Shown one piece after another: positions 1,071 through 29,751 of a DNA stretch of 29,751 bases (its first letter is position 1; each line of letters starts with the position of its first letter). Below the pieces are notes generated by a model. That model did no database searches. It saw only the letters and a program-made list of their open reading frames with translations, and was not told the origin of the DNA. Source of the DNA: a virus (taxonomy: Duplodnaviria > Caudoviricetes); the IMG/VR virus record IMGVR_UViG_3300007987_000062, positions 1 to 29,751 of that record. The stretch is one strand, 5' to 3'. A program made the position numbers and the translations under genes.

Positions 1071-1404
1071 TATAGCCCCAATAATACACAAACTATTATT
1101 GGCTAATAAAGATTTAAAAGAGTTAAATAGAAAAATACTTTCTCAAAAGAAAAGCGGTGAGGTGGTACTAGGGCAGATAGCTGAGTCCCTTGCTCCTACT
1201 CTGGACAAGTTTACTATAGACTTAGAAAACGCAAAAGACATACATTTCTTGGGGATGCCCATTGATTATATACATTTTGCAGAGGATAGTATAGACTTCA
1301 TAGAGATAAAAAGCGGTAATGCGCAGCTTAGCACAAAGCAACGAAAAATAAAAAAGCAGATAGAAGATGGTAAAGTAACTTTTAGAGTAGTTAAAATATC
1401 TTGA
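1030..1404 (+). CDS. Holliday junction resolvase-like PD-(D/E)xK endonuclease (Endonuc_Holl type) with hydrophobic N-terminus
   Basis: GQIAE..AP, FLGMPIDYI, FIEIKSG.AQLS..QR.IK motifs. Ends at TGA, or two codons later at TAA 1408-1410 if TGA is read as Trp. Confidence 0.8.
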   Translation: MTILMIWISTLIFSIAPIIHKLLLANKDLKELNRKILSQKKSGEVVLGQIAESLAPTLDKFTIDLENAKDIHFLGMPIDYIHFAEDSIDFIEIKSGNAQLSTKQRKIKKQIEDGKVTFRVVKIS

Positions 1405-1429
1405 CAATAATTATAATTGTCAGTATTTT
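1401..1429 (+). promoter_or_regulatory. sigma70-type promoter, probably leaderless transcript
   Basis: TTGACA-N17-TATTTT; the ATG at 1436 follows the -10 after a 6-nt gap. Confidence 0.6.
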
Positions 1430-2071: not shown

Positions 2072-2162
2072 GAATAATAGAACTCTATTACGTTAGAAGC
2101 GCTTAAACTCGGGACTAGCACAACAACATTTTTTTTTAAACCAATTTTTTTAAAATAAAAAT

Positions 2163-3077: not shown

Positions 3078-3099
3078 CAACACACTTAATTATAATTAT

Positions 3100-3564
3100 A
3101 TGAAAATTAATTTAAAAACAATCAAAGAAAATAACTCAAAAGCAGACGGCGAATATACTCCATTAGATGAGGGACGCTATGACTTAGTAGTAGAAGGCGG
3201 AAAAATTAAAACATCTGCTGCTAAAAATGAATACCTTGAAATAGCTTTTAGAGTTACAGGGCCAAAATTCGCTAATAGAAAACTATGGACTCCTTTTATG
3301 TTATCAGAAACAGGCCTTTACTATTTAATCCGCTTTTTAAAAGCTGCTGGATTAGAGGCTTTAACCGAAACAGATGACTTGGAAATCGAAGAGGTTATAA
3401 AAGCAATGTCTGGTCAAAAGGTTAGTGGCTATGTAGAGATAAAAAATGAGCGTAATGAGCTTAGTAACTTTACACCTATTGGCGGTAAGGGAAATGCTGA
3501 AGAGCCTGCTGCACCTGCTGCTAAACCTGTTTCAGCAGCTCCTAAGAAAAAGATGTTCTCCTAA
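3100..3564 (+). CDS. DUF669-type single-stranded DNA-binding protein
   Basis: PLDEGRY...NEYLEIAFRV...NRKLW signature and a low-complexity Pro/Ala tail. Confidence 0.75.
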   Translation: MKINLKTIKENNSKADGEYTPLDEGRYDLVVEGGKIKTSAAKNEYLEIAFRVTGPKFANRKLWTPFMLSETGLYYLIRFLKAAGLEALTETDDLEIEEVIKAMSGQKVSGYVEIKNERNELSNFTPIGGKGNAEEPAAPAAKPVSAAPKKKMFS

Positions 3565-4043
3565 TGAAGGGAAATACACTAGAAAAAAGTGTTAATAAAG
3601 TAAACTTAAGATATAGGCTGGAGAAATCCAGCCTTATTCTTAAAGTTCCTACTCCAATAATATTAACAAGTAATGGGCTACATGCAGAGCAATCTACTGT
3701 AGACTTCACTGGAGTAATACAAGGAGGAAAGTACATAGCTTTTGATGCTAAAGAGACTAAAATTAAAACTAGGCTAGATCTTAAAAATCTACATAAACAC
3801 CAAATTGACTATCTAGAGATGGTCAAGAACTTAGGCGGCATAGTATTTTTTTTAGTTTGGTTTTACGAAGTACATAGCAAAGAAGCATTTATAGTCCCTT
3901 TAAGCTTAATACACAAAACAGTTTCTAGTGGTAAAAAATCAATTCCTTATAAGGAGCTTGAAGAAGCATCGCTATTAGTTCCATTAGACGACTACCTAAC
4001 ATTTTTAAATAACGATGAATTTACTAAAAAGCTATTTATCTAA
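3564..4043 (+). CDS. recU: RecU-family Holliday junction resolvase
   Basis: GNTLE, KVPTP, STVDFTG, FDAKET and HQIDYL...GGIVF motifs. Confidence 0.9.
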   Translation: MKGNTLEKSVNKVNLRYRLEKSSLILKVPTPIILTSNGLHAEQSTVDFTGVIQGGKYIAFDAKETKIKTRLDLKNLHKHQIDYLEMVKNLGGIVFFLVWFYEVHSKEAFIVPLSLIHKTVSSGKKSIPYKELEEASLLVPLDDYLTFLNNDEFTKKLFI

Positions 4044-4281
4044 GCAAAAAACTGATTTGCCTATTAGGGCATCTCTTAAATTAAAAGACGGGACCTTAGT
4101 CGATGGAGTGCTTTCTGATATAAATGAAGAAGCTCTTATTATGAAAACATACGGCGAAGATCTACTTACAGAAGCAAACAAAAAAGAGCTATCTGACCTA
4201 TTCTCTGGATTTATTCCAAAGTGGTCATACATAGTAATGAACAGCATACAATCAATAACTTTTTTTGAAAAAAATGGATAA
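4015..4281 (+). CDS. Hypothetical small protein, possible Sm/LSm-like fold
   Basis: LKLKDGTLVDGVLSDINEEALIM resembles the Sm1 motif. Confidence 0.45.
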   Translation: MNLLKSYLSKQKTDLPIRASLKLKDGTLVDGVLSDINEEALIMKTYGEDLLTEANKKELSDLFSGFIPKWSYIVMNSIQSITFFEKNG

Positions 4282-4708: not shown

Positions 4709-4777
4709 GCCGATAATAAGGTTCCACCGGTTTGGAAAAACATAAATTTCTACAACCACTACAACCTTATTTATAAA

Positions 4778-5152
4778 ATGTTAAAGAAAAACGAATTTCT
4801 AAACGTAGGCATAAGCGCGCCTACAGAAAGAAAACTAACGATACAGTTTATCAACAAAAAAAGAGTAAAACTATTAAACGGAAAAAAAGTTGAAAAAATA
4901 ATACTAGATTGCGTAGAATACGAGACGGGGCTTAAATTCAAGATTTCAGATGTTGCACATAAAGAATCCGATGGAAGTATTAAAATTTCCGGAATATGGT
5001 GGTCAATAACAGATGGTGGGTTAAGCCCCCAGTGTTACTTGGCAAAGCTTCTTAAAAAGCATAAAGCAGCTCTCGTGGGAGAGCTTAGGAAAAAAGAAGT
5101 AACTGCCGTTCAGGACTCTAATAATTTTTTAGTATTAAAAGGATATGACTAA
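4778..5152 (+). CDS. Hypothetical protein
   Basis: 124 aa ORF whose stop overlaps the start of the sigma gene. Confidence 0.6.
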   Translation: MLKKNEFLNVGISAPTERKLTIQFINKKRVKLLNGKKVEKIILDCVEYETGLKFKISDVAHKESDGSIKISGIWWSITDGGLSPQCYLAKLLKKHKAALVGELRKKEVTAVQDSNNFLVLKGYD

Positions 5153-5939
5153 TTACTTTAATGACATTCAAAAATGATCTCCTATTGAAAAAGAAGTTGA
5201 GATTGAGCTAATAAGAAAAGCACAAAATGGTAACGACTCCGCTAGAGGTGAGGTAATAAAAGCTAATCTCAAATTTGTTGTTCAAATCGCAAAAGCGTAC
5301 CAAAATAAAGGACTTTCATTCGAAGATCTTATAATGGAGGGGAACATTGGTTTGATAAAATCAATAGATAGGTTTGATACCGAAAGAGGGGTTAAGTTTA
5401 TATCTTATGCAGTCTGATGGATTAGACAAGCTATATTAAGCTCGTTATATGAAAACGGCTCTACTATAAGATTACCTATAAACAAGGCAATGCGGGTCAC
5501 AAAGCTAGCTAAAGCGCGAGCTCTTCTGGAAGGAGAACTATTAAGAACTCCTACTCATGAGGAGCTCGCTACTTTTTTAGGAGAAGACTCAGCCTTAAAA
5601 GAAGATATACAGTATCTTCATACAATTATAAGGCTTGATATTCCTAGAACAGATGGCGGGGATGCTACCTTACATGAAGTTCTTTTTGAAGAAGAATCTT
5701 TTGATGACAAAATAAAAGATTTTTCATTTGAATTTTTATATCTCGCTCAAGGATTGCCAGAAAGAACACTAAAAATAATTTGTATGTATTATGGAATAGG
5801 ACTTCCAAGAACATACAACTTAAGAGAAATCGGCGAGGATCTGTCCCTAACTAGAGAACGGGTAAGGCAAATAAAAGAAGAAGCCCTTAAAAAGATAAAG
5901 GGTCACCCGGAGGGTTCAATATTATTTGACTACTTATAA
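5145..5939 (+). CDS. sigma70-family (RpoD/RpoS-like) sigma factor, 264 aa with two in-frame TGA read as Trp
   Basis: Hand translation from ATG 5145: MTNYFNDIQK*SPIE...ANLKFVVQIAKAY...DLIMEGNIGLIKSIDRFD..RGVKFISYAV*WIRQAI...TIRLP...LREIGEDLSLTRERVRQIKEEAL. TGA at 5175 and 5415. Confidence 0.92.
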
Positions 5940-7271
5940 ATGAAAAACATAATAATTGTAAAAAATAAAAAAGACTGTGAAACAGCAATAAACTATTTAT
6001 CCACTCAAAATAAATTAGGTGTGGATTCGGAAACAACTGGATTTAAAGCAATACAAGAAAAAATGCTTTTACTGCAAATAGGTAATACCTATAGGCAATA
6101 TGTATTTGATCTTGCTAGAATACAGGATTGCTACGGCATGATAAGGGGCTTACTTGCCGATCATACCATTATTAAAATATTTCATAATGCTAAGTTCGAC
6201 TATACATTCATTAAGTCTACTTTTGGAATAGATGTTCATAATGTTAGATGTACATTAGTTGCGGCACAGCTTCTTACTAGAGGAATCATACAGGCGGACA
6301 ACTCGCTAAAAGGGTTGTTAAGCAAACACTTAAACGTAAACATATCAAAAAGCCAACAAAAGTCATTTATTGGCGCTAAGTTTGGTGAAGAATTTACAGA
6401 TGAGCAGCTTGAGTACGCTGGGACGGATATAGAGCATTTAGTAAACCTAGAAAATAGCCTTTTAAAATTATTAAATGAGAGAGGCATGCATGATCTATAC
6501 CGTTTAGAATGTGAGACTACTAGGGTAACAGGAGATATGGAGTACAATGGGCTTTTCTTGGATACAGAGATGTGGCTGGGCCTTGCTAATAAGTCTGAAA
6601 AAGAAACACGGGTTGCTATAGCTGCCTTAGATGAATATTTTTTACCATACTGCAATATGACCCTTTTTGGAGAAGCTGATATTAACTACGGATCTCCACA
6701 GCAATTGCTTCCAATCTTAAATAAGATAACTGGGCAAAATATAGAGTCAACTGGTGAGGAAGAGCTCAAAAAAATAAACCACCCGGTTATAAAACCTTTA
6801 CTTGCCTTTAGAGAGCATATGAAAAAGGTTACTACGTATGGTAAAGAATTCGTAGATAAACATATAAACTCTATAACGGGTAGAATCCACTCCTCCTTTA
6901 AACAACTTGGAGCAGATAGTGGGCGAATGGCGTCAGGAAGCCCTAATCTACAAAATATTCCAGCAGGCCCTGAGTACAGAGAGTGCTTTAGAGCACAACA
7001 TGTAGATTACAGATTAATCTGTGCAGATTTCAGCGGCCAAGAACTTCGCTTATTAGCGCACATCTCAAAAGAGCCGCAATTTATATACGCTCTTAGTAAT
7101 AACATGGATCTTCACTCTTACAGTGCTTCCCTAATATTTGGAATACCTTATGATGATTTCTTCGAAAGGGATGAAAAAGGAGATGTGTTACTGGACTCTG
7201 CAGGAGACCCAGTAATTAAAAAAGAGATGAAAAAAAAATACAGGAATCCTGCAAAGAGCATCACATTCGGT
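5940..7271 (+). CDS. polA: Family A DNA polymerase, exon 1 (3'-5' exonuclease to motif B)
   Basis: DSET, HNAKFD, SGRMASGSPNLQNIP, motif A ADFSGQELR; ends at KSITFG. Confidence 0.93.
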
Positions 7272-7809
7272 TAATGAAAACTAATCAAGCCGAATCAAAA
7301 ACCCTTAAATTCGGGGAAACCCTACCAGATGGTGCTGAGGGCAATCCCGAGCCAAGCCTGCTAAAGGAAGGTGTAGAGACTGAACAGGGGTTATGTTTGA
7401 AATGCAAAAAGCATATAGAGCCTAAAAGAAAAAAATACTGTAGCCGTAAATGTAGTTGTGCTTGTATACAGCAACAATATAGGATTAGGCACAACCTAAT
7501 ACAAGCGCCTGGAGTTGGTTCTGGAAATAGCCAACACGGAGAGAATAACCATCAATTTAAAAATGGTTGGACTACATATAATAAAAAAGCTTTTGGCACT
7601 AAACCAAGTTTATGTAATAAGTGCAGGTCTACCTCTAATCTTCTTGTTCATCATATTAATGAGGATAGAAGCAATTCGGATGTAGGGAACCTAGAGATAT
7701 TATGTAAAAGATGCCACCAAAAGCATTATGAGGCTCGTGACCATTTAGGTAGATATGCAAACAAACATAAAGAGACAGTCCAAGCCCAGAAGTAATTTTG
7801 GGGCACTTG
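7272..7809 (+). mobile_element. Group I intron 1 in polA (538 nt)
   Basis: Exon ends in U (GGT) with P1 TTCGGT/GCCGAA. Core elements P AAATTCGGGGAA, Q AATCCCGAG, R GTAGAGACTG, S AAGAGACAGTCC; terminal G 7809. Splicing restores KSITFG|LIYGMG. Confidence 0.92.
7274..7795 (+). CDS. Intron-encoded HNH endonuclease with N-terminal Zn finger
   Basis: CNKC...VHHINEDRSNSDVGNLEILCKRCH HNH motif and CLKC...YCSRKC finger; start codon uncertain. Confidence 0.8.
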   Translation: MKTNQAESKTLKFGETLPDGAEGNPEPSLLKEGVETEQGLCLKCKKHIEPKRKKYCSRKCSCACIQQQYRIRHNLIQAPGVGSGNSQHGENNHQFKNGWTTYNKKAFGTKPSLCNKCRSTSNLLVHHINEDRSNSDVGNLEILCKRCHQKHYEARDHLGRYANKHKETVQAQK

Positions 7810-8169
7810 TTGATATATGGAATGGGTCCAGGTAAACTAAGTAATGACCTTGGAATTTCATTAAATGACGCTAAAGACTTAATTGAAAAGTACTTTACTG
7901 TGTTCCCAACTATAAAGCAAACTCTAGATAAAGTGACTAATGACGCTATGAAAAACGGATACGCTTATTCTCCGCTTGATGGCAGAAGAAGAATATTTCA
8001 TGGAGTTGACTGGGACGATAAAGGTAAGGTTGCTCACTTAAAAAACGTAGCAAAGAATCAACCATTTCAAGGTGCCGGTGCTAGTGTAACAAAGTTGGCC
8101 CTATGCTGGATGAAGCATGAAATAGATGAAAACGTCTGGGACGCTAAAATAGTCCTAGTTGTCCACGAT
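7810..8169 (+). CDS. polA: Family A DNA polymerase, exon 2
   Basis: LIYGMG...GRRR...NQPFQGAGA...VVHD. Confidence 0.93.
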
Positions 8170-9087
8170 AGATTTTGTTGTGGTTAAACCCCCTTAATTG
8201 CTGGAAACTCCTGTTAGGTTGTAGATACCAATTCGGTAAAAATTCTACAAATAGGGACAATCAGCAGCTATTTAAAATAAAAATGAATACTATAGAATTA
8301 AAATGCACTTACTGCGGCCGCTCATATAATAAACTTGCGAGCAAATCAGAAAACTCAAAATATTGCTCAAGGGACTGCTTTGATAAAAAAGCCTATATGC
8401 TTGATTTAGGAATTTCATGCGTGCAAATTCTAGCATCTTCCGTACTTGGGGATGGGTGCTTGTATAAAGCTAAATCTGCAAATTATCATAAGTACTCTAC
8501 AAATAGTAAATATTTAGAGTATATAAAATATAAATCGTCACTAGTGGCTCCGTTAAAGTTTGGAAGCCCTAACGGTATTATAAATAACGGTTTTTCAAAA
8601 ACTACCTTATATCAATTTGCAACACAGCCCCACCCCAAAATAACAGAAATAGCACTAGAGCCCCTTGACTTAAAGTTACTGAGGCTAAATGAGCTTGGAG
8701 TAGCTCTTTCATTTTTTGATAATGGTTCTTTACATCAGAAAAAAGGGTTTTATAACCTTAATACTCATAGACATGATAAAGAAACGCATATAAAAATACT
8801 TATCCCTTACTTTGAAGATGTGTGGGCCCTTTATCCAAAGTTAGGGCAAGAACGTAAAAAGGATGGGAGGCATTTCTTTTATCTACGATTTGGAGTTGAG
8901 TCAGCTAAAAAGGTAAATGAGATTTTAAAAGAATTTGAACCTAGTAATAGTATTTTTAAATATAAAACTTTTAAATAGTTCAGAGGCCATCCGAAAGGAG
9001 TAGGTGACACGCCGAAACAGGGGGGATCTTTTTATAAGGTCAAGATATGGTCCGATCTACTTAGAAATAAGTAGATAACATAGAATG
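8170..9087 (+). mobile_element. Group I intron 2 in polA (918 nt, IA-like)
   Basis: P1 CCACGAT/GTTGTGG with U.G pair; P AATTGCTGGAAA, Q AATCAGCAG, R TTCAGAGGCCA, S AAGATATGGTCC; terminal G 9087. Splicing restores motif C VVHD|EILVE. Confidence 0.92.
8283..8978 (+). CDS. Intron-encoded LAGLIDADG endonuclease with N-terminal Zn finger
   Basis: ILASSVLGDGCL and VALSFFDNGSL motifs, CTYC...YCSRDC finger; lies inside the P6 stem CTATTTAAAA/TTTTAAATAG. Confidence 0.8.
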   Translation: MNTIELKCTYCGRSYNKLASKSENSKYCSRDCFDKKAYMLDLGISCVQILASSVLGDGCLYKAKSANYHKYSTNSKYLEYIKYKSSLVAPLKFGSPNGIINNGFSKTTLYQFATQPHPKITEIALEPLDLKLLRLNELGVALSFFDNGSLHQKKGFYNLNTHRHDKETHIKILIPYFEDVWALYPKLGQERKKDGRHFFYLRFGVESAKKVNEILKEFEPSNSIFKYKTFK

Positions 9088-9231
9088 GAAATTCTCGTGG
9101 AGGCGCACAAAGATTGCGCTGAAATAGTGTGTAGAACACTTGAAAAAGTAATGATCGATGCTTTTAACTTTTACGCGCCCTCGGTGCCTATGGTAGTTAA
9201 GGGCGAGATCTCAAACTGCTGGATACATTAA
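9088..9231 (+). CDS. polA: Family A DNA polymerase, exon 3 (spliced protein 611 aa)
   Basis: Hand translation EILVEAHKDCAEIVCRTLEKVMIDAF...VPMVVKGEISNCWIH*; missed by the ORF track. Confidence 0.9.
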   Translation, partial: EILVEAHKDCAEIVCRTLEKVMIDAFNFYAPSVPMVVKGEISNCWIH

Positions 9232-9232
9232 T

Positions 9233-9683
9233 ATGATTAAATATATTGAAGGGGACTTATTAGAGTCCCCTTTTCGTTAGATGTCCTAGCTCACAGATGT
9301 AATTGCTTTTGTGTTATGAGAAGCGGCATTGCTAAGCAAATAGCTAAAAATGCCCAGGGGCTGAAAAGGTAGACTCAATGACTACCCCTGGAGACATAAC
9401 AAAACTGGGTACCATACTGTCTGTACAGTGTGGAGATATGTAGGTAGTTAATGCTTATACTCAGTATAAATATGGAAGAGATACAAATAAAACTTACGTT
9501 GACTACGATGCAGTAGAAAGTGCATTTCTTCATTTAGACAAAAGTTTCCCCGAGCCTATGAAAATAGGAATTCCAAAAATTGGTGCAGGCCTTAGTAATG
9601 GAAATTGGAAAATAATCGAAAACATAATTAACGAGATTTTTCAAAATAGAGAGATCTACGTTTTTTGTAAAAAGTTGAAATAA
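9233..9683 (+). pseudogene. Macrodomain (ADP-ribose processing) pseudogene
   Basis: MIKYIEGDLL / LAHRCNCFCVMRSGIAKQI / VVNAYTQYKYG...DYDAV...IGIPKIGAGL..GNW spread over three frames. Frameshifts near 9275 and 9350; in-frame TAG at 9441. Confidence 0.85.
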
Positions 9684-17225: not shown

Positions 17226-17939
17226 TTAAGAAGGAAGAAATAAAGGATTAATAGGAACTATTCTAGTCCCCACTAGTGAAGCACTCTCAGCCAATACAGT
17301 TTGGTTAGCTTGTATTCCAAAATTGTGTTGACGAAGTGCGCATCCTTCAATGTAAACTCCGCCATAAGCCTCGCCCTCCATATCATACAATACTAATCCA
17401 AGGCCAAAAGGCTTGTTAAATACAGTAGACATAAAGTTTAACCATAAATTACCTATTTTTTTTCCGCCTACTGCTTCACTTCTAAGCTCTTTTACCACTG
17501 TAGGTAATTTACCGTACGGAAGAGTTGGCTTATTACTATTTATATTGCCCGGTGTACCTGGGTACGAAAAGTAGTTTTCGTTTTGCACTCTTACCATATA
17601 TAGTGCTTTAGCCAAAGATGGCCCATCAAACAATACTCTAGACAAAGAGCATTGCACAGAATTTCTACCTGGGATAAAAAATGGTACCCTACTACCTATT
17701 TCATATATTTCATTAGCCGCTCTATTCTGCGTTATTTGATAAGACTGAACCTGCCCAATTGGGATTAGACCGTTAATGCCTGCTGCTTTTGGATATTTTC
17801 TTGGTCCCGAAAATATTACAGCACCCTCAGCAGATAAAAACCCACCGTTTGATGCGTTAGCTACGTCGTCCGGTTGGACGTTATCATCATTTCTTAATGT
17901 ATTATTTTTTCAATTAATTAAACCTGAAAATCCTGCCAT
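17226..17939 (-). CDS. Probable tail tube protein (237 aa, one TGA read as Trp)
   Basis: ATG 17939 with AGGAG SD; TGA at codon 10 (17910-17912); IGQVQSYQITQNR..NEIYEIGS motif; directly follows the sheath gene. Confidence 0.75.
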
Positions 17940-17952
17940 TTTTATTTATCTC

Positions 17953-19536
17953 CTAAAATGTTAATGTTATTTTAATATAGTTTAATGGATAAAGTAGTTT
18001 TAAACTAAAATCTACTTTTAGTGTACTCGGTGCATCAGGATCCTGAAACAAATTATCCAATTTTAAATCTGCGACTATTCCATTATCAATAAGAACATTA
18101 GCTGCGGAGTTAAATGCTGCTGTTAAGTTTTTTGTAAGAGCTGGGGAAATTACGAATTTTCCAATAAGTGGAGAAACAAAGTCTCTTAAAAACTTAGCAG
18201 AATAATCAATTGCAGTTGTAATGCTTAACTCACGGGTTTGAGCTGTAAGAGCATTAGTAGACAACTGGTGACGGATTAATAGTCCGCCAACGTCTTCCAT
18301 AATTAGGTTACCGCCAGAAGCAATAGTATTCAAGTCTGAGTTTTTAAAGTACTTATTACTAAACTCTAGTTTAGAGAATCCTGCAATACTTGAGTTAGTT
18401 AAAGGCTGTGATGGCGTATTTACAGATATTTTACCTGCTAGGGCTGCAGCCATGTAATAACCAGGAACTGGTATAAGTACATCAACTTCTACTTTAGTAG
18501 TCGTAGATACTGCCTTTATAGTCGTGATTTGAGCATCAGTAACTGAATCGCCCTTTTGATAAGACCCGTCAGTTGCACTAGCTACCCATATAGGTCTGTG
18601 TGCACCTGCAAATGTTGCACCAAAAGCTGCAGTAATGAAAGCAGTTGTCAGTGTCCCTAAGTTTGCATTTGTCATTCTAACATAAGCTACTTCTGGGTGA
18701 ATGTTGAATAAGCGTTTTTCACCTTGACCCATTGCCCAGTTTTTTAGCGCTGTAGCGTTTTCGGCTTTAGTTCCACTTTCATAGTCAGCAATCCCTGCTA
18801 CTGACCCTATTACAATTCGCTCTCCTTTCTCCTCAGGCGCAGACATTGCGGTTGCATGAGACTTAAAAGCTGTTATGTCAGCCTCTAAAGAAGAAAGTAC
18901 TGCAATAGAATAAACATCTAAAGCGCCTTCAAATAAGGTAACTCCAGTAGATACTGCACTTCCTTTAGCTGTAACGCCCGCATAAAATTTAGATGCACCG
19001 TTTTGAAAAAGCATGCTTGCTCCAAATACAAGTGGGTTAAACCACTGACGACTTGGGTCTAAAGTAGACTTCGATATAAAGTCGTTTATTTGCTTAGCGT
19101 CGTCTATTTCTATTAGAGTGTTTTCTCTTTCAGCATTTTTAGCTAAGTATCCAATATGTACTGAAGCTTTATCTAAAGCAACATTGGTCCTAATTTCCTG
19201 CCCAGCTGGGATTGTTAATAGGCTTGTACCGTCTACAAGGTCTGGCGCTGCTAAAGTGTAGCCTCCCGATTCTAGGTAAACAACATCGCCTGGAGTTCCT
19301 GTGGTGCCCTCGTTTGCTAAGTAAACTACAACTGAGCCAGCTACGATATTAGCAACTTCGTAAGGTAGTATTACAACTAACTCTGCGCCGACATATTTAG
19401 TTTCAATGGCCACTGTAGGATCTACCCATATATAACCTGGGCCTACAACTGCACTTTTAAGCGTTGGGTCAGGTAAAGGAAAACTTTGGCTAACTTGTAC
19501 TTGTCGTACGGTAACGCCTGGTTTTTGATAAGACAT
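17953..19536 (-). CDS. Contractile tail sheath protein
   Basis: N-terminal YQKPGVTV, C-terminal RELSI...DY and YPLNYIKITLTF; AGGAG SD. Confidence 0.85.
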   Translation of the reverse strand: MSYQKPGVTVRQVQVSQSFPLPDPTLKSAVVGPGYIWVDPTVAIETKYVGAELVVILPYEVANIVAGSVVVYLANEGTTGTPGDVVYLESGGYTLAAPDLVDGTSLLTIPAGQEIRTNVALDKASVHIGYLAKNAERENTLIEIDDAKQINDFISKSTLDPSRQWFNPLVFGASMLFQNGASKFYAGVTAKGSAVSTGVTLFEGALDVYSIAVLSSLEADITAFKSHATAMSAPEEKGERIVIGSVAGIADYESGTKAENATALKNWAMGQGEKRLFNIHPEVAYVRMTNANLGTLTTAFITAAFGATFAGAHRPIWVASATDGSYQKGDSVTDAQITTIKAVSTTTKVEVDVLIPVPGYYMAAALAGKISVNTPSQPLTNSSIAGFSKLEFSNKYFKNSDLNTIASGGNLIMEDVGGLLIRHQLSTNALTAQTRELSITTAIDYSAKFLRDFVSPLIGKFVISPALTKNLTAAFNSAANVLIDNGIVADLKLDNLFQDPDAPSTLKVDFSLKLLYPLNYIKITLTF

Positions 19537-19561
19537 AAATTTTTCTCCTAATTTTAATTAT

Positions 19562-20371
19562 TTAATTTTTTGGTGCCGATTTCACTCCTCGGTACACGCT
19601 AGTGCCGATTCCTAAAAGCGGGTTGAGTGTGAATGTACCAGCATCTATAGCTGTGTCCATTATTCTTTTTGACTTTTTAGTCCCCTTTTCAGCAGAGGCA
19701 TATGTAAACGCGCCGACTGCTACTCCAGAAGTCCCAAGTCCTATAGATAAAGGCTGTATAGCTTTTCTTTTCTCAAGTATGGCAGTCCCTCTTTCTGTGT
19801 ACCCTTTTATTTCACGATCTTTAAAAAGTTTATGTTTTCAAGATCCTTCTTGTACTCTGTGATTCCTGGCGAACTCTTTACCATCCTTTTTAATTATCGA
19901 CCATTCTTTTCTAGGTCCGCTCGTTACAATCTCTTTATACCTATCACCCTTCATCTGCTCAATAGGTGTTTTTACAATTTTCTTAATCCCATTAAAAAAC
20001 CCGCCGCTCCTGCTTTTATCAAAAGCATCTATAACTCCACCAATAATATGCGCAGTGTTTCCAACACCCTGGCGAAAACCTCTAGACAAAGTCGGAACTT
20101 CAGTTTTATTAAGGTCTTGAATAACTGCCTGTCCTTTAGAATTAACCGCCCCCATAGTATTTTTAATACCGTCTTTACCTAACCCGATCGTTCTAACAGG
20201 GTCTTTAAACTGCCTAGCATAATCTATAAAAGACCTAAACGCGCCTTTACCACCTGTAGGGTTCATGGCTGCATGCTCCACGCCTAATAGAAACTTTCCT
20301 ATGTTTGTGTTTTCAAAAGGTAATTTTCCTAAAAGTTTTAAGCTTGCTTCTTTAGCTAGTTCACTTGCCAT
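19562..20371 (-). CDS. Basic Gly/Lys-rich probable virion protein (269 aa, one TGA read as Trp)
   Basis: Reading through TGA 19838 adds W plus 91 codons to TAA 19562 and fills the gap before the sheath gene. Confidence 0.75.
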
Positions 20372-20377
20372 GTATAA

Positions 20378-20386
20378 ATGATATCA
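20378..20386 (-). promoter_or_regulatory. Possible extended -10 promoter, leaderless
   Basis: TGA-TATCAT, 6 nt, then ATG 20371; no SD. Confidence 0.4.
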
Positions 20387-20398
20387 TTACTTAATAGT

Positions 20399-21208
20399 TT
20401 ATAGTTTATAAATTCCATATACTCCGAAAGGGTCGGGTACTGTATATAATGTATTATCTATTAAGTCAATTGTCAAGGGGACGCTAGTTTTTTGTTCTAA
20501 AGTTACTGAATCTTTAAAATTTGCAAGTAGCTGCTTTCCATCTGGAATTGGGTCAAAGAGTTTTATAGTTTTACCATCTCCATTTATAATATACTCTAGT
20601 CCTTCAGTTAGTTTAACATCGTCATAGTAAAGTTTTTGTGTAAAAAGAGATGTATTTTTAAATACAGTCTCTAAAACTAGAAATGATATATTAATTGGGA
20701 TTAATGTTACTTTAACACTTGAAGCTGTAAGTGAAACAATATTTTCTTTACCTAAATTTAAAGATGTTACCTTATGAATTCCTTGAGCCCTAAATGCTTC
20801 CCGATTTGCTGATATAACATAAAATACTTCATTAGCTAATTCATCTACTAAAAATGGAGTTCTATGTACAACATTTATTGATAGTGAGCCTTGCATTAAA
20901 TCAGTTATAGAGTAGTTCCCTAGCCTGCTTTTATCTGGCTGCGGCCCCATACTCGGTACGGTTTTTGAAGGGTCTCCATTATAATATTGTGGTTCAGCTC
21001 GTAAGTAATTGGCTCATCCGGCAGGCCCCCTGTCTATTATAATTGTGGGTAACTTTGCAGCCACGCCTATTTCCACAGAGTACTTATCCGCTATAATTAT
21101 TTTAGTAAGCTTTGGGTCTGGGTTTCAAGTATATTTTTCATGCCTAGAAAACCAATTCTGTAGGTAGTTTAAGTAAATATATTTACTCCGTAATGTTAGG
21201 CCTATCAT
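20399..21208 (-). CDS. Probable tail completion/terminator protein (269 aa, two TGA read as Trp)
   Basis: From ATG 21208: ...KYT*NPDP...KLPTIIIDRGPAG*AN..., in frame with the called ORF 20399-20950; function inferred from synteny. Confidence 0.65.
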
Positions 21209-21350
21209 AATACTTCCCGTCGTTAAATAAAACATCTTCTAAAGTTTTTTCAACCTTACCGCCACTCTTGCTTGCTAGTTCTTCTTCTAGCTGTTGAATT
21301 AATTTTTTATTTGCTTCTAAATCAGGAAGCCCTCTTTTTATTCTAATCAT
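21183..21350 (-). CDS. Small hypothetical protein (55 aa)
   Basis: MIRIKRGLPDLEANKKLIQQLEEELASK...; overlaps both neighbours by a few codons. Confidence 0.5.
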   Translation of the reverse strand: MIRIKRGLPDLEANKKLIQQLEEELASKSGGKVEKTLEDVLFNDGKYYDRPNITE

Positions 21351-22143
21351 ATGCTTCTACACTATATATCTCATCATCTAAGTGAACTAAGCTTAATCTA
21401 GCTTGTTGCTCAAAGGGTACTCCAAGTGCGGAAACTTGCCTAACCATTTGTATTTCATAGCGCTCGTTTGTTTTTGGGTCCACTATAATATCTCCTACAG
21501 TTAAAGGAGGTATATTAGTAGTGAAAAGAAAAACATCACTGGGATAAAATTCTCCTCAAAGCTGTAATGTTTTTTGATTCGGAGAAGGCTGAATCATCCC
21601 TCGAAAGGTTTGTGGTTTAAAATAGCCCTCTCTCCACCCTGTTCCAAAACAAGTGCAGTCATCACAAATTTTACCATTATTAACAAATAAAATAGGATCC
21701 CAAGAAACTTCACACCTAGTTCCTCATGTTCGTTTTTTAAGTAGAACAAAATCTCTCCCACTTTTTTTGTTTAATACTAATTTTTTTTCTCTAAGAATAG
21801 CCTTTCATTGTATTGACGGCGCCTCATCATTAACAAATCTATAACCATTCACGGGAAATTTGGATTCTTCTAGAGTTTCTGAATTCTTTATTTTTGCGTA
21901 AAAATATCAAGATCTAGTACTGGACAAAAGACCTTTTACACTCATATCAGTATAGTAAGGCGTGTCTATAGGAAGATCAGAGACTACAGGTTCATACTCG
22001 TTATCTAATTCAGATGGAGCTTCACTTTTAAATAAGCTTATAGTATATATAGATAAATCTTCTAAAGTAGGGGAAACCTCCCACTCTATAAAAAGAGAGT
22101 CACTATCTTTTCTACTAACTTTAAAACTTTTTAGATTTACCAT
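21343..22143 (-). CDS. Probable head closure/neck protein with Cys cluster (266 aa, four TGA read as Trp)
   Basis: TGA at 21907, 21805, 21724 and 21556; KKRT*GTRC...CDDCTCFGTGWREGYFKP and PPLTVGDIIV motifs; ends at TAG 21343. Confidence 0.75.
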
Positions 22144-22145
22144 TC

Positions 22146-22625
22146 TTACTGAGTAATTGATGAATATTCGCTTTCAACTCCGCCATACGCACTATTAATG
22201 TTTTTAGCACGTTTAATAGCCATACTTCTTCGTTTAAAGTCGCTACCCATTATATTGAAATAGTTTATATATCTGCCGTACTTATCCATATCTTTAACTG
22301 TTATTCCACCACTATCATTATAAGTAAGCGTATTTCTAGAAGAAAGAACTCCTTTCATAGTTAAGATATTTAACAACCCTCCTAGCTGAAGTACTGACCA
22401 CGGAACTTCCGTATGAGAAATATAGTTTAGGTCTATAGGTTCTATAGAATAATTCATTTCATCATAAGCATCTTGTAAGGCTATGAATAGCTCAAAATCT
22501 GTAGACTCCTGAGCTTCTGTAAGCTCATTTAACTCAGGGGTATCCCCTAAATACTTTCTAAACCTTACAACATAAGGTGCCCAGTCCGCTGGGATCTCTA
22601 ATAAACTGATATCGATACTTGCCAT
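22146..22625 (-). CDS. Probable head-tail adaptor (neck) protein
   Basis: Follows the capsid gene; R.YLGD.PELN.L and RN.L.YNDSGG motifs. Confidence 0.6.
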   Translation of the reverse strand: MASIDISLLEIPADWAPYVVRFRKYLGDTPELNELTEAQESTDFELFIALQDAYDEMNYSIEPIDLNYISHTEVPWSVLQLGGLLNILTMKGVLSSRNTLTYNDSGGITVKDMDKYGRYINYFNIMGSDFKRRSMAIKRAKNINSAYGGVESEYSSITQ

Positions 22626-22630
22626 AGTTT

Positions 22631-22659
22631 ATCTTAATACTTATTAAGGACATTGTCAA
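22631..22659 (-). promoter_or_regulatory. sigma70-type promoter, probably leaderless
   Basis: TTGACA-N17-TAAGAT, 5 nt, then ATG 22625; immediately follows the terminator. Confidence 0.65.
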
Positions 22660-22661
22660 AC

Positions 22662-22688
22662 AAAAAAGGCCGGGTATACCGGCCTTTT
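22662..22688 (-). terminator. Intrinsic terminator after the major capsid gene
   Basis: AAAAGGCCGG-TATAC-CCGGCCTTTTTT on the - strand; it lies after the TAG at 22709, not after the TGA at 22922. Confidence 0.88.
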
Positions 22689-22708
22689 AAGGGTCTAGTT
22701 TACTTTTT

Positions 22709-23605
22709 CTAGCTAAGTGTTAAAGAAGCTACAGATTTAGTATTTGCTATAATCATACCGATTGTCTCATATGCTGAGAAGGTGATAAGATTACGTTTTT
22801 TATCGATGTCGAATTTAGTATCGTTTAAGATATTGAATTCGCCCAAGTACTCAGGAGCTGTGAAAGAGTAAATAGTATTAGCTAACAAATCTGTTTTGTT
22901 AGAAATAACTACTCTGCGGCCTCATAAAGTAGGGTATTTAAACCCACTAACTGCAATCTCGCCTTTCAATGTACCGTCACCGAAAGTACCTTTAGCGTTG
23001 TTATCGATCATAATGCGGTTAAACATTTGAGTGTCCATTAACAATACTTCTGTTTGTAAGAAGTTACCGTCAATTTTGTTGAAAAGCTCAAGGATAGAAT
23101 CCTCAGGAATTTCTCCACCCGCACCATAAGATCCAGTAACTGCGTTACTTTGGATTACAATAGCTGCATCAACGTGGCGAAGGAATGTCTCATCCTCAAT
23201 ACGCTGAATTTCTAATACAGATTGTTGCTCAATGATTTGAGTCAAAGGCATACGATATGCAAGTAACTCTTCTTCCAATTTTTGGTATTCTTCAGAAGAA
23301 ATAGTGTGGAAAGACATTTCCACTCTTTTGCCTTCTAAATAATTCGTGGTAGGTTTTCCACGGAAGTTTACCAACATCGCTTTAGAATCTGGTTCTAACT
23401 CGATTATTTTAACAACACCATCATGTTTCGTAGAAACTTGTAAGTCGGTTTGTGTTACATACATCGGAGGAAGGATCTTACGAGCAAATGATGTCTCGCG
23501 TAGTTTCTCACGAATAAATGCTGCTCCATCTGCAGCTAGTTTTTGCATACCCTCTTGGGTATCTAACTTACGTAAAAATAAGTCGTTAATTGTTCTTGCG
23601 TCCAT
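22709..23605 (-). CDS. Major capsid protein, HK97 fold (298 aa, one TGA read as Trp)
   Basis: AGGAGG SD; IREKLRE.SFARKILPP; ...GFKYPTL*GRRVVISNK...AYETIGMIIANTKSVASLTLS, stop TAG 22709, then terminator. Confidence 0.85.
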
Positions 23606-23618
23606 TTAAAAAGGCCTC

Positions 23619-24059
23619 CTATACTGTGAAAATTTCAATTACGTTAGTAGTAGCGCCCAAATGAGAATACGAATGGGTAGCTTTTGTACAAATAGCAACA
23701 ACAGTGTCAGCAACATCTGCAGTGACTAAAAGGCCAGCAGCATTAACAGCAAGTTTGTCGCCTACTGCAATCGCACCTGTAAATTGGTCTGTTAGCGCAC
23801 GCATTTTTCCAAAAAGAACAGAAAGTCTTTTTAAGCCAGCGGCAGTGGCATCTGGTGTGAATCCAGCGGATCCATCACGGTTAGATTCTGTAAACACCTG
23901 AAATGCGTTAGCTGATCCAGCTGCTGGCAGTGCCAACGTATCCCCCACTTTAGAAACCCAAGTACCGGTTTTAACGGTAGAGTTTGAAGCGAAGAATGTA
24001 TCTGGAGCATTAACGTCAAAGCGTTCAACACTATCCAAGTTAGTTAATAATCGAAGCAT
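23619..24059 (-). CDS. Probable capsid decoration/cement protein (146 aa)
   Basis: AGGAG SD before ATG 24059; AVGDKLAVNAAGLL motif; immediately upstream of the capsid gene. Confidence 0.65.
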   Translation of the reverse strand: MLRLLTNLDSVERFDVNAPDTFFASNSTVKTGTWVSKVGDTLALPAAGSANAFQVFTESNRDGSAGFTPDATAAGLKRLSVLFGKMRALTDQFTGAIAVGDKLAVNAAGLLVTADVADTVVAICTKATHSYSHLGATTNVIEIFTV

Positions 24060-24087
24060 TATTTTTTCTCCTAATTTTAATATTTTG

Positions 24088-24441
24088 TTAATCGAATAAA
24101 GTTGCAATAAAACGGTCTTCTGCAGACCCTATAGGCAACGGAGACTCACTAAGCTTACCAACTGAAAAGGCTCTTTGTCCTCTATTGGTAGGCATCATGT
24201 GGGCAACTTTGTCCATAGTTGTTAAATCGTCTAATGGTTTATTTAGTAAGGACTCAAGGTTTTCCTGAATGTCCTCTGCTGGGAAAGATCCCATTTTTCA
24301 AAGTTTGAATGTTAGGTCTTTAGCCGCAGCAAACTTTTTAAGCTCACTAGAAAGGTCGTTTACCTCCTGAGAAAGCTCCTTCCTTTCAGAATCAAGAGCT
24401 TTTAAAGCCATAGCTACTTTTTGTATTAATTGACCTTTCAT
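24088..24441 (-). CDS. Head assembly/scaffold-like protein (117 aa, one TGA read as Trp)
   Basis: ATG 24441: MKGQLIQKVAMALKAL...TFKL*KMGSF... Confidence 0.7.
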
Positions 24442-24458
24442 GTGACCTTTACTTATTA

Positions 24459-24779
24459 CTAGTTATCTGACTCTGCAGCAGCTTTAAATCCAGCATACAT
24501 AATTTGGCCTAACTCGTAAGCTTCGGCTACTTTTTCACGCATGTTTAATTCTTCAGCTTCCTCAGCTATTTTAAGCTCAGCTAATTTTTCTACATCTTCC
24601 GCAGTGTAATTGCCTTCACCGTATTCAGCTGCTAAAGCTTGATCTGCCCAAGACGCATATTTTTCTAATATTTCTAGACGTTCGTCTACTACTTCGTTAA
24701 CTTGAGCTTGTGCAATTTTTTCTTGCTCTACAGCTGCAGTTTCTTGTATCATTTGATTAAATATATTTAAAAGACTCAT
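24459..24779 (-). CDS. Acidic helical head/scaffold-like protein
   Basis: AGGAG SD; repeated EKxA; GQIMYAGF tail. Confidence 0.7.
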   Translation of the reverse strand: MSLLNIFNQMIQETAAVEQEKIAQAQVNEVVDERLEILEKYASWADQALAAEYGEGNYTAEDVEKLAELKIAEEAEELNMREKVAEAYELGQIMYAGFKAAAESDN

Positions 24780-24790
24780 TGAGTTATCTC

Positions 24791-25252
24791 CTATTTATTA
24801 TAAATTTTATTGTAAAGATTTAGTACTACGTTGTTTTCAGAAGCCATTTTTTGCATAAAACGTCCTGCACCTAACGCGTCGTAAGGGTGGTGACCAGCCG
24901 CTTCTTGCATCTGAGCGTCGTATGCTACAGTTACAGGAGATGCTTGAGGTCTAGATACTTGTGAAATTGGTGGAATTGCAACTTCTTTAGTTGTAGGCAT
25001 TGCTATTCCCATAGCTGCTAATTCGCTAAAGAAACTATGAGCTGCGATTTGGCCCATTTCTTGAGCTTGTTCTACTAGCTCTTCTTTAGTCAAGCCAACA
25101 TTAGTAGTGGCTGATGCTACTTTTTCAGCTTCTACTGGAGCTGCTGATTTAGCTGCTGGTTTTTCTGTTTCAAGAAGAGTTGCTTCGAACTGCGCAGAGG
25201 CAGTTTTTTCACTTTCAAGCTCTTTTAACAGATCATCGATTTTATATGACAT
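24791..25252 (-). CDS. Head/scaffold-like protein
   Basis: AGGAGG SD; EKTAS, EKVAS and QKMAS repeats; GQIAAHSF motif. Confidence 0.7.
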   Translation of the reverse strand: MSYKIDDLLKELESEKTASAQFEATLLETEKPAAKSAAPVEAEKVASATTNVGLTKEELVEQAQEMGQIAAHSFFSELAAMGIAMPTTKEVAIPPISQVSRPQASPVTVAYDAQMQEAAGHHPYDALGAGRFMQKMASENNVVLNLYNKIYNK

Positions 25253-25262
25253 TGTTTTCCTC

Positions 25263-27038
25263 CTAGGAAATTATTTCGTTGAATATTGAATTTATTGTTT
25301 CTTCATCTAAAGATTGCAAATAATCTAAGCGATTAACAGATGCTGTTTTTTGGGAAAAAAACTTTACGGCGTCGTCAGAGCTACTTAGGGACTTTGTTAT
25401 CCCTTTTGTAAGGGATACTGCGCCTATAGAGGCCCCCAATGATGTCAAAAATGGATTTTTTCTTATGAAATTTTCCGTGTTTGATATAGGTTGTCCTTGT
25501 CTGGCCCTTGCCTCAATCTTGGCACTTTTTCAGTAAGTTAAAGGAGCTGCTACTCCCATAGTAAAAAGTCACTTTTGGGCTGTCGGCATACTAGCTTTTT
25601 TATAAATACTTTCATTAACAGGGTTAAGTACTTTTTCTTGCCCCATCGTTACTCCTTGTGCTAAAGAAGCACCCATTGTTGGTAATAGTCAAGGGTGTTT
25701 GCCTACAAAAGCTGTAAATGTGTTAGGACTTGAATACCGCCCGAAAAGGGTAGCGTAACCTGCATACAAAGCTCCTATTGCGACAAATGCCATTGTAGGG
25801 TCTTTTACTCCTGATGATGCTGGTTCTGAAGTATCATCAAAAAGTAACTTGCTTACCATAGATCTTTCTACTGGCCTTCCGGATGGGTAGAAGGGATCAG
25901 GAGCTGAGCTGTCCAAAGGATTTTGTAAAACAAAAGCTTTCTTCTCTAATATTCTATTAATTATAAGTGGCTTTGTCAAGGACAGGTCTAATAAATCTTC
26001 AGATAAAAGTTGAGCTATCTTTTCATTAAGGTAATCTGGGCCAACATCATCTATTTTAGATGGTACTGTATCGCTAGTAATATTAAAGACTTGCCCTGTT
26101 TTTTCTAGTTGTTTAGACCACTCATGATTATTCGAATAATAAAGCGCTAATTTTTGAAATTCTTCTCTCTTGGGAAGAATTTTAAAAGCTAACATTGTAG
26201 AGAGTACTTCATTAAGTGGATACTCTGCCAATTTTTTTAGCTTAGCATCTGAGATATCGCCTGTTGAGTTTAATATTAAATCAGCAGGGTCTTCCTGGAT
26301 ATCTGTTAAAACTCCATTTAACTTTTTAGTTATTTGGGCTTCCTTTGAATCTTCAAAAAAAGCTGTTTTTTCCAAATGACCCATAAGTGGAATCATGAAA
26401 GATGAAGTTGGATCTGCCGGAATAGTTACTATAGATATATCAAAGAATCTAGGTTTTTCATTTATAGCATAAACCTTTCTACCATCTGGTAAAACTTGAT
26501 TCATTTTATACTTTAAATAGTCTGAGTAATCAGCACGAACTTTTGCTCTTTTGCCAGTTATAGAACATATATCCTCTGGAACTTTGCACCCCATTGAGGT
26601 TTTTATAATTTTACCGCCATTTATATCTTCAATTATTTTTTGAACCTCAGCTAGAGCACGCTTTAGTCGAATAACTAATTCTACTCTCCGCATCTCTGGG
26701 TTATAGAATGAAAAAATAACCTTACCCATAGATTTTTCTGGGTTTTTATTTTGGTGGTGCCTATAAACATGGCCATTATCAACAAAGGTATGATGATACT
26801 TTTTTAACGCTTCTTCTGGAAAATAATCTCCATTACGATTAGATGAATAATACTCTCCTGCAGTTAAGGCATTTACAAGTGCGTAAATGTACTGGTTGTC
26901 TCTATCTAGAGTCGAAAGAAAAGAAGAAACCTCGGGAGCATAACTCGCTGTTTTTTCTAAGTCATTGCTAGACTCAATAATAGAGATTATTGGCTCGTCG
27001 CCAGGTGAAGAAATATACTCAGCTATTTTTTCTATCAT
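25263..27038 (-). CDS. Prohead maturation protease with long C-terminal extension (591 aa, three TGA read as Trp)
   Basis: NRNGDYF, HHQNK, TSMGCKV...CSITG, FFDISIV..PADP motifs. TGA at 25689, 25569 and 25530 join ORF 25689-27038 in frame to ORF 25263-25448. Confidence 0.8.
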
Positions 27039-27520
27039 TAATTACTGCCTAATAAGTCTTTAAAGATTGATAAAGATCCAGAAGTTGCATCAGGTCCCAT
27101 AGAGACTGTATGTTTACTTTTTTCTATATCAGTTAATGCCTTATAAGTGTCCAATCCAGGCCCTCCTAAATCACGCATAGTGCGCATTCCTACATTTTGA
27201 GTAATGAACGCTCCAGCTGCCGTTGGATCTTGTGCTAAATTTGGCGCATTTTTATAAAGAGTGTCCCAAAGTGCCATAACCTCGTTAGGATCAGCTTCTA
27301 ATAAATGAGGGTTTTTTTCTAGCATCACTTTATAATATCCGGGAGACTGTGCTTGCATAAACTTGTCTTCTGCATAGTTAATCATTCGTTTAATAAACTG
27401 CGCAACAATAACTCCAGCTCCTATAACCCCTATCATTTTTAGAGCTTCAGATGCACCTCCAGAGGATGCTACTTTTTCAAGTGTTCTTGCACGCATTTGT
27501 TGTAATTCTGTATTTTCCAT
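27038..27520 (-). CDS. Probable virion (head-internal) protein
   Basis: 160 aa; LEKVAS followed by a hydrophobic Gly-rich helix; TAATG overlaps on both sides. Confidence 0.65.
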   Translation of the reverse strand: MENTELQQMRARTLEKVASSGGASEALKMIGVIGAGVIVAQFIKRMINYAEDKFMQAQSPGYYKVMLEKNPHLLEADPNEVMALWDTLYKNAPNLAQDPTAAGAFITQNVGMRTMRDLGGPGLDTYKALTDIEKSKHTVSMGPDATSGSLSIFKDLLGSN

Positions 27521-28497
27521 TATAGATATGTTCTTTCTAATTTGTTTGTTGTTTTAACCGCGTTTTTAAAAGCATTGAAAGTTTTAGGAGTAACTTTGGT
27601 CTCTCCCCTTTTACCTCCTAAATAAAATACTCCACCTACCGCTGAAATAACTGGGTGATTTTTTGCAAACCTGTAAAGGCCCTTTACTGCCCTAGATAAG
27701 TAACCTATGTTAGTTTCAGCTTTTTTCTCTAGCGGGCTTTCTCTATCAAGGGTCTCTGCAATAGCTTCAGATGCTACATAGGTTTGAATAGCAGATAAAG
27801 CTATATCTTCATACTCAGCAATTTTTTGAACAAGCTTATTATTTGGGTTTATAAGGGTGGCTTTCTTCTCTAATTCCTCGGAGGGGCTAAGCTCTATAGA
27901 TCATTTTTTAAGATCATCATTTATATGATCCGTTAAATACTCCCCAAATAAGGATGCGTGCTTTACAACATATCCTAAATCTTTAGTATCTGTTCCTGAT
28001 AGTGCTGCTTGCTTTATAATCTGTACAATCTCGGATTCTATACCTTCTAATTTGGAAACTTGTTCTCCTGTAGCTCTTTCTAAAGCTGCAAGCTTGTCCA
28101 ATTTTTCCCTTGACTTTAAGTAAGCCTCTGTAGAATTAAATAGGACTTTATTCTCTACCTGCTCAGCTTGCTTCTTGAGTGTTAACTTTGATTTTCAATC
28201 TGTTTCCGGTTTTAGTGAATACGCTAATGTATGCGATATTTTTTCAATATCGACTGATGAAATTTTTGCTGCATCCGCTAAAGGGAATTTTATGTATGCA
28301 GTATCTGGAGAGGCTGTTTTCAACATCTCTAAATGGGTACGAACATTAGCAGTTTCGGCTATTCGCTGAACCTGGTGTGGGTTTAAAGCATGCTGAGAAG
28401 CTATCTTTTGTAGCCCATCTGTCATATTCTCCCCCCTCTGAAGAAACTCTTCAGATAACTGTACTCCTAGTCTTTGTAAGTCGGATGGCTGTAGCAT
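27520..28497 (-). CDS. Probable head protein (325 aa, two TGA read as Trp)
   Basis: TGA at 28195 and 27901 join two called ORFs; the frame ends in a TAATG overlap with the next gene at 27520. Confidence 0.8.
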
Positions 28498-28503
28498 AAT
28501 TAT

Positions 28504-28532
28504 ATTATATATTAAGTAGTGATGATTGTCAA
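28504..28532 (-). promoter_or_regulatory. Perfect-consensus sigma70 promoter heading the head operon, probably leaderless
   Basis: TTGACA-N17-TATAAT, 6 nt, then ATG 28497. Confidence 0.8.
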
Positions 28533-28535
28533 GTA

Positions 28536-29648: not shown

Positions 29649-29751
29649 GTTACCACTTATGAATATCCCTTTTTCCTGCTCATGCCTAATAACTAATGTT
29701 GAGTTAGGAACAGTAGCACAATATACTTTACCTATATAGTTTTCTTTAATA
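29649..29751 (-). mobile_element. Intein C-terminal end within the terminase
   Basis: Hand translation YIGKVYCATVPNSTLVIRHEQEKGIFISGN|CQD, matching intein blocks F and G. Confidence 0.88.

Follow-up and report, generated by a model that had tools for sequence, protein, structure and literature searches.

In phages, stop-codon recoding is generally viewed as a timer for making virion and lysis proteins, while the genes for transcription keep the standard code. The locus considered here raises the question of whether a code switch can also reach transcription itself. It lies in the window, a whole phage contig of 29,751 bases that is present in aquifer metagenome runs, with replication genes on the plus arm (2–17172) and the terminase, capsid, sheath and tube genes on the minus arm (17226–29750). 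Within the replication arm, a gene for a phage sigma70-family factor (sigma1) carries two in-frame TGA codons (Table 1). With a recoded sigma, late transcription would lie downstream of the code switch, and such a gene bears on a standing question, namely whether recoding is a regulatory timer or merely tolerated drift. Our comparisons indicate that the recoded sigma is real and lineage-specific, and that a circuit built on it is plausible, if putative.

Table 1. Positions of the features discussed; coordinates without a prefix are those of the window.
Feature	Position	Strand	Remarks
sigma1, phage sigma70-family factor	5145..5939	+	264 aa with TGA as Trp
In-frame TGA, codon 11	5175..5177	+	Trp in homolog P0008; His in G002 and G004
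In-frame TGA, codon 91	5415..5417	+	First Trp of YAVWWIRQ, region 2.3
149-aa C-terminal ORF, ATG at 5490	5490..5939	+	Open in the standard code; regions 3-4, no region 2
RecU resolvase	3564..4043	+	TGG in window; TGA in G002/G003 (2) and G004 (1)
DNA polymerase A, TGA-free	5940..9233	+	Begins one base after sigma stop; two group I introns, homing endonucleases
Structural arm (terminase, capsid, sheath, tube, others)	17226..29750	-	15 TGA versus 23 TGG; 8/15 genes
Class I late promoter TTGACA-17-TATAAT	28504..28532	-	12/12 sigma70 consensus; ATG 6 nt past -10; conserved in 5 relatives
Class I late promoter TTGACA-17-TAAGAT	22631..22659	-	10/12 consensus; after capsid terminator; in G001, G002, G004, G009
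Class I-like site TTGACA-17-TATTTT	1401..1429	+	Before exonuclease gene, upstream of sigma; similar in G002, G004
Class II motif GGTATAAGAA	2065..2074	+	Before Sak4, upstream of the sigma-containing gene run; no -35 element
Second sigma (sigma2), divergent sigma70-family	G002:11297-12016; G004:6640-7365; G011:50777-51493		Late strand, among baseplate genes
UCA tRNA	G011:70650-70746		Long variable arm; between holin-like gene and amidase
UCA tRNA	G016 ~76160-76255		Homologue of G011 tRNA, same location
UCA tRNA	L454:7669-7764		
UCA tRNA	L467:4027-4121		
Split UCA tRNA	L465 (G026) 6462-6497 + 7095-7155		Two halves, 597 bases between
Lak megaphage sigma70-like gene (MK250029.1, MK250016.1)	L444:5776-6792; L445:5836-6852		Four in-frame TAG

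With TGA read as Trp, sigma1 is a complete sigma70 factor with regions 2, 3 and 4 in a single frame. Pfam detected region 2 (1e-18) and region 4 (2e-12), with region 3 under its cut-off; among PDB entries RpoD was matched at 3e-44; and AlphaFold gave a confident helical model (mean pLDDT 82, residues 1–100 at 88–97). The original prediction had placed one TGA at codon 11 and one at the first Trp of the region 2.3 motif YAVWWIRQ, and both were confirmed in the ORF, the second being codon 91. Codon 91 is followed directly by a TGG (codon 92); the same site is TGA in one close relative (G004) and TGG in sister clades. This motif and the region 4.2 motif LTRERVRQ are both intact, and the TRER(V/I)RQ of region 4.2 is conserved in sigma1 and its relatives. 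In sigma70 the region 4.2 motif reads TTGACA. By homology and modeled fold, sigma1 is an RpoD-like member of the sigma70 family, with predicted functions in polymerase binding and promoter-specific initiation. Under translation table 11, the start codon of sigma1 yields a 10-residue peptide. The claim that the standard code makes nothing else held for that start codon only, since the C-terminal ORF beginning at ATG 5490 is also open, and it is this form of sigma1 that appears in protein databases (P0114).

Contigs from four runs, one of which (X4) may be the source of the window, showed zero differences in the sigma1 region, and four further runs agreed with the sequence wherever they covered the gene. 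This agreement, together with identical structural-arm copies (L063, L064 and L075), rules out assembly error as the origin of the TGA codons. Pseudogene-like decay was looked for and not seen. The frame contains no frameshift, TAA or TAG, and pN (0.30–0.31) lies far below pS (0.73–0.74), similar to the neighboring genes, with pS saturated and hence giving no exact dN/dS; together these features argue strongly against a pseudogene. The sigma branch of the window is ∼2.2 times as long as those of its relatives (RecU, 2.1; other genes, 0.8–1.8), which may reflect relaxed constraint. Sigma1 is, as judged from these substitution patterns, an intact, conserved gene under purifying selection.

Which amino acid TGA encodes was assessed from alignments. 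Across ten family contigs, the partners of TGA codons in the window were Trp (19), another TGA (13), Phe (6), Tyr (6) and Cys (1), and Gly was absent among the residues listed. Among structural orthologues, TGA sites of the window are TGG or TGA elsewhere, and vice versa. These alignments identify TGA as Trp in the window's phage family, in line with the predicted choice of Trp over Gly; readings as Gly or selenocysteine are ruled out by the pairing with Trp and other aromatic residues, Cys being seen only once. The pattern is not that of selenoprotein-type recoding (UGA opposite Cys), although the UCA-anticodon tRNAs of the family are long-armed and one of them, from G011, passes as tRNA-Sec in Rfam despite the alignment of UGA with Trp. 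One member of the family, G019, has almost no in-frame TGA and represents a standard-code relative.

On the plus arm of the window, the 23 other genes hold 49 TGG and no internal TGA codons, and sigma1 alone differs (Fisher p = 0.002). The leftover stretches of this arm (the last polymerase exon, a broken macro-domain gene and a small ORF) also lack in-frame TGA. Three plus-arm genes stop at TGA, each with a back-up TAA 2–17 codons further on. Counting the window and its closest relatives (three lineages), six replication-arm genes use TGA as a stop, which suggests a host that probably uses the standard code.

A capsid search for relatives gave 13 loci; ten of their contigs were checked, and three carried sigma (G002, G003 and G004). 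As G002 and G003 are 99.8% identical, they were counted as one lineage, so that the subclade of the window comprises three lineages with DNA. Repeated searches for further subclade sigma DNA returned G002/G003 and G004 only, and a metagenome scan for sigma returned only copies of the window. One of two genome scans for sigma was empty, and the other gave cellular sigmas among the matches listed (3 of 64 parts). We found no close relative in culture, and the top capsid matches share ∼30% identity.

The three subclade sigmas form one clade (support 100/100) at ∼55% identity, and all bear TGA, at sites that differ: codons 11 and 91 in the window, 91 in G004, and ∼32 in G002/G003, where W91 is replaced by Phe and yet a separate TGA stands near position 32. 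We counted Trp codons over the three lineages, with terminal TGA stops trimmed by hand. TGA accounted for 0/127 in the replication arm (sigma and RecU excluded), 4/7 in sigma, 3/5 in RecU and 66/200 in late genes, a confinement to late genes like that of code-4 phages, from which sigma and RecU depart. Sigma is distinct from the replication arm (p = 3e-6) and not from late genes (p = 0.23), and the chance of at least one sigma TGA in all three lineages, at their own late rates, is 0.17. Because its rate matches that of late genes, tolerance alone, rather than selection to keep the codons, could explain TGA in sigma. The expected retention of TGA in sigma orthologues beside TGA-free neighbors was thus borne out among the closest relatives (3/3 lineages), RecU excepted. 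That exception narrows the claim that sigma is the sole plus-arm gene with internal TGA, which stands for the window and fails for the subclade, where RecU of the same operon is recoded in two of the three lineages.

Protein databases store these sigma genes as fragments. In a protein collection, eight further rows fell in the subclade clade, seven of them C-terminal fragments starting past W92 and one, P0002, full length; these seven were counted in the tree, and P0128, from a separate listing, makes an eighth fragment. The C-terminal fragments come mostly from contigs of 6–216 kb (P0126 from a 1-kb contig), and the N-terminal sigma piece of G004 stops exactly at YAV. Contigs of 59, 63 and 216 kb are among the sources of the subclade's protein records. 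The window's own entry, P0001, is probably a code-4 gene call, and P0002 may be another. This pattern suggests that sigma genes of the subclade are widely interrupted, as an internal stop would produce, the codon itself being invisible in fragments.

More distant relatives gave the opposite result. Among 18 family loci with sigma beside polymerase A, late genes carry TGA in seven, lack it in nine and are missing from two. Six recoded sister lineages were counted (L292 was left out as a sister of L291), and their sigmas have TGA at 0/15 Trp codons (probability 0.0013 at their own late rates). For scale, the late-gene rates of two near-complete genomes, G011 (205 kb) and G016 (210 kb), are 0.57 and 0.44. 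The contrast between 3/3 subclade and 0/6 sister lineages gives p = 0.012, for lineages that are not independent. The TGA-free sister sigmas argue that the gate is specific to the window's subclade and no family-wide lock, and the idea that recoded relatives in general retain TGA in sigma had to be dropped. Sigma appears, on these counts, to avoid TGA in the sisters and to tolerate or need it in the subclade. Apparent TGA codons in RecU of L302, L311 and L314 and in sigma of L125, L299 and L300 proved to be terminal stops.

In G011 and G016, a TGA-rich gene block (G011:20976-31631; G016:19663-26771) stands within an otherwise TGA-free replication arm. Judged by sequence starts only, it probably consists of glycosylation genes, including a glycosyltransferase. 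Such blocks imply that TGA marks late-needed products even in early operons. TGA scattered through other early genes had been named in advance as evidence against a sigma switch; the replication arm of the subclade is free of it, whereas RecU and these blocks are not.

Which promoters sigma1 might serve was approached through conserved motifs, of which there are two classes. Class I, TTGAC(A/T)-17-TATA(T/A)T, stands mostly before structural genes, often with the -10 box 5–6 bases ahead of the ATG, and it alone has a -35 hexamer. It also precedes RNR (9753) on the replication arm, and the class I-like site upstream of sigma shares bases with the TGA that ends the gene before it. Class I promoters come close to the sigma70 consensus, and many host sigmas would recognize them. 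The two late promoters originally proposed as targets of the phage sigma (28504..28532 and 22631..22659) are real sigma70 consensus matches; their dependence on a phage sigma is weakened, as such sites also occur on the replication arm. The nearest cellular sigmas to sigma1 belong to Bacteroidota and Marinimicrobia, but SD-like motifs were seen in 11–38% of genes and class I differs from the Bacteroidota consensus. If the host were a Bacteroidota, its sigma would be unable to read class I, going by the available text of PMC6847099. At the class I sites at 28532, 22659 and 1401 the ATG lies 5–6 bases past the -10 box, a spacing conserved across relatives, which suggests that their mRNAs are leaderless.

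Class II occurs at 52 sites in six genomes, against about 0.1–1.1 expected per genome. All 52 are on the replication/early strand, mostly ahead of TGA-free genes; a motif at L465:6874, outside the 52 counted, is the one exception to this strand rule. Since class II stands mostly before TGA-free early genes, a TGA-bearing sigma is unlikely to drive it. The family has a second sigma (sigma2), which has neither the region 4.2 TRER motif nor the WW pair and whose genes in G004 and G011 contain TGA. Sigma2 may be a virion-delivered early sigma and a candidate for class II. For the simplest assignment, we infer that sigma1 acts on class I, and sigma2 or a host sigma on class II.

No tRNA gene, suppressor included, was found in the 29,751-base window. 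Elsewhere in the family, UCA-anticodon tRNAs are present in G011, G016, L454 and L467 and, intron-split, in L465. Those of G011 and G016 lie downstream of a TTG..-17-TATATT (class I) site. RF1 and TrpRS were found in none of the five family contigs searched, two of them near-complete. A pattern scan for UCA tRNAs gave 42 loci, and wherever family genes were present the locus was a copy of G011. The insert in the L465 tRNA holds an ORF for a PD-(D/E)XK endonuclease and weakly matches a group I intron (E = 0.41); L465 6462-7155 is thus a putative suppressor tRNA with a group-I-like intron in its anticodon loop, the splicing of which could itself delay the code switch. A tRNA-Trp(CCA) called in L465 by ARAGORN was judged a mis-fold across the 3' half of this split tRNA.

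A search with the neighboring volactin gene gave 23 loci, with L465 and L467 as a separate branch. In composition the L465 contig is nearest to G002/G003 (0.74; next 0.64). The link of these two tRNA contigs to the window's subclade is indirect, and the L467 contig is not clearly assigned by composition. Both tRNAs close the late tail/lysis operon. Upstream of them we saw no class II motif and only imperfect sigma70-like sites, while a clear class I site lies downstream. We discounted the class II motif at L465:6874 as a tRNA promoter because of its place within the intron, past the 5' half of the tRNA. With the suppressor tRNA of relatives sitting in the late lysis operon, feedback is a better fit than feed-forward. 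We also observed a CUA (amber) tRNA in the main tRNA cluster of the TGA-recoded genomes (G011:105393-105469; G016:115365-115439), an actin-like volactin gene beside the suppressor/lysis region across the family (G011:72744-73724; L465:8629-9645), and a reverse transcriptase gene (Pfam RVT_1) at L465:16470-17372 that is conserved in G011, G016 and G019.

The reading we prefer, with confidence a little short of even, is that of a feedback amplifier and not of a feed-forward lock: sigma1 would be translated after suppressor tRNA builds up, and would then drive or amplify virion-gene promoters. In this scheme, sigma1 mRNA would be made early from the replication operon and stay translationally silent, like that of RecU and of the glycosyltransferase block in sister genomes. 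As UGA-suppressor tRNA accumulated, sigma1 would be translated through both TGA codons and would drive or amplify the TTGAC-17-TATA(T/A)T promoters ahead of virion genes. Host-sigma or read-through transcription would supply the first tRNA, and sigma1 and the late-operon tRNA would then reinforce each other. That only three lineages with DNA are at hand, sharing ancestry, weighs against this proposal. In the sister lineages sigma1 would come first, followed by the late transcripts, the suppressor tRNA among them, and finally by late translation; a UCA tRNA after a class I site and a TGA-free sigma are expected if sigma is upstream of the suppressor there. With the sister lineages apparently wired the opposite way from the window's subclade, the family would offer a natural comparison for the question of timer versus drift. 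A bolder version, possible though unlikely in our estimate, is a positive-feedback switch built from the code, in which sigma would need the tRNA for its translation and the tRNA's late operon would need sigma for strong transcription. Late commitment would then be self-locking, rewired from an ancestral sigma-then-suppressor cascade, perhaps independently in Lak phages.

Tolerated drift is the alternative that survives best, and we consider it unlikely. Here sigma would be accessory or needed late, host sigma would read the late promoters, and TGA would occur at the ordinary late rate with no regulatory role. The parity of sigma with late genes (p = 0.23), the similar behavior of RecU, the consensus nature of the late promoters and the long sigma branch of the window all agree with it. 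Yet drift still demands that sigma was dispensable before the code switch, whereas sigma is under purifying selection with its DNA-binding motifs conserved. Moreover, nearly all subclade homologs look interrupted, and the one lineage that lost the W91 site has another TGA.

Under a strict feed-forward lock, as in the original prediction, an early suppressor would unlock sigma, sigma would be essential for late promoters, and TGA would be selected. The presence of TGA in 3/3 lineages at different sites is compatible with this, as are the two TGA codons in the window, one of them very near the start (only 4/42 recoded minus-strand ORFs have a first TGA as early). But the suppressor tRNAs of relatives (L465 and L467) end a late tail/lysis operon with no early-type, class II promoter upstream, and sister clades are without the gate, which makes the strict lock quite unlikely.

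Sigma1 could instead be a late product that is packaged in the virion and acts when the next infection begins, with TGA marking only its late synthesis. The sigmas of Lak-C1 and Lak-A1 offer a parallel: four in-frame TAG codons stand among TAG-free neighbors (4/12 Gln codons versus 0/36, p = 0.003), and an N-terminal extension, similar on visual comparison to the beginnings of TAG-rich proteins encoded nearby, hints that the protein is part of the virion. The position of sigma2 among baseplate genes, with TGA in two genomes, points the same way. However, sigma1 has no extension, its gene belongs to the replication operon and has no TGA in recoded sisters, and sigma2 suits a packaged role better; delivery of sigma1 by the virion is very unlikely in our view. 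The Lak and window sigmas share in-frame recoded stops among stop-free neighbors, and differ in that the Lak gene reads TAG as Gln, belongs to an unrelated phage group and has the extension. The available text of PMC6784885 mentions Lak sigma factors and does not mention their recoding.

That sigma1 is a pseudogene with two nonsense mutations, or that the host itself reads UGA as Trp, is extremely improbable despite the long sigma branch and the broken macro-domain gene nearby, given that both stops are TGA at Trp-compatible sites in an otherwise clean frame, that ∼55% identical orthologues carry TGA with pN far under pS, and that a code-4 host would not leave 0/127 TGA in a replication arm where TGA serves as a stop.

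In phage sigma cascades, such as those of T4 (gp55/gp33) and SPO1 (gp28/gp34), phage sigmas redirect host RNA polymerase stepwise. The proposed circuit differs in that its timing would be set by stop-codon suppression, not by coupling to replication or by an anti-sigma. The window family, with two sigmas and two promoter classes, is otherwise like these cascades as outlined in the available text of a jumbo-phage overview (PMC7824862). It also resembles the code-4 phages Jade and Agate, as the available text of Borges et al. (bioRxiv 10.1101/2021.08.26.457843) describes them, in having TGA as Trp in structural and lysis genes, standard-code replication genes, a suppressor tRNA next to the lysis cassette, genome sizes of ∼200 kb and standard-code relatives in the family (here G019). 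Unlike in those phages, recoding in the window's subclade extends to a transcription factor gene within the replication operon, and the window phage comes from aquifer runs, not the gut. According to the same text, in two Jade genomes the lysis cassette is preceded by a code-change operon encoding a tRNA, TrpRS and RF1, an arrangement unmatched in the window family, where only the tRNA was found. The word 'sigma' is absent from the main text of that preprint. With the block-coded phages of Pfennig et al. (bioRxiv 10.1101/2022.06.29.495998, available text), the family shares one dual-readable strand block, with TGA stops and nearby back-up TAA, the other block being recoded. There, transcription genes are listed among those without reassigned stops, and the window sigma is an exception within the dual-coded block. 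A moraphage paper (PMC12619734) was set aside as a match, since in its available text the phages are of a PolB lineage and not the PolA family of the window. Our literature search found no report of a recoded sigma or of such a circuit, as had been supposed, although supplementary tables (Pfennig S8-S11, Borges, Devoto) could list some. The recoded sigma gene would be a new form of known phage recoding.

Inserted and broken genes were also seen along these genomes. The polymerase A introns are of group I, with HNH and LAGLIDADG endonucleases; RNR (window 9828-14146) has an intein and a LAGLIDADG insertion; and the terminase has an insertion in a near-identical copy of the window (G010). The macro-domain-like gene at 9235-9680 contains frameshifts and stops, with an apparently intact counterpart at G004:24658-25122.
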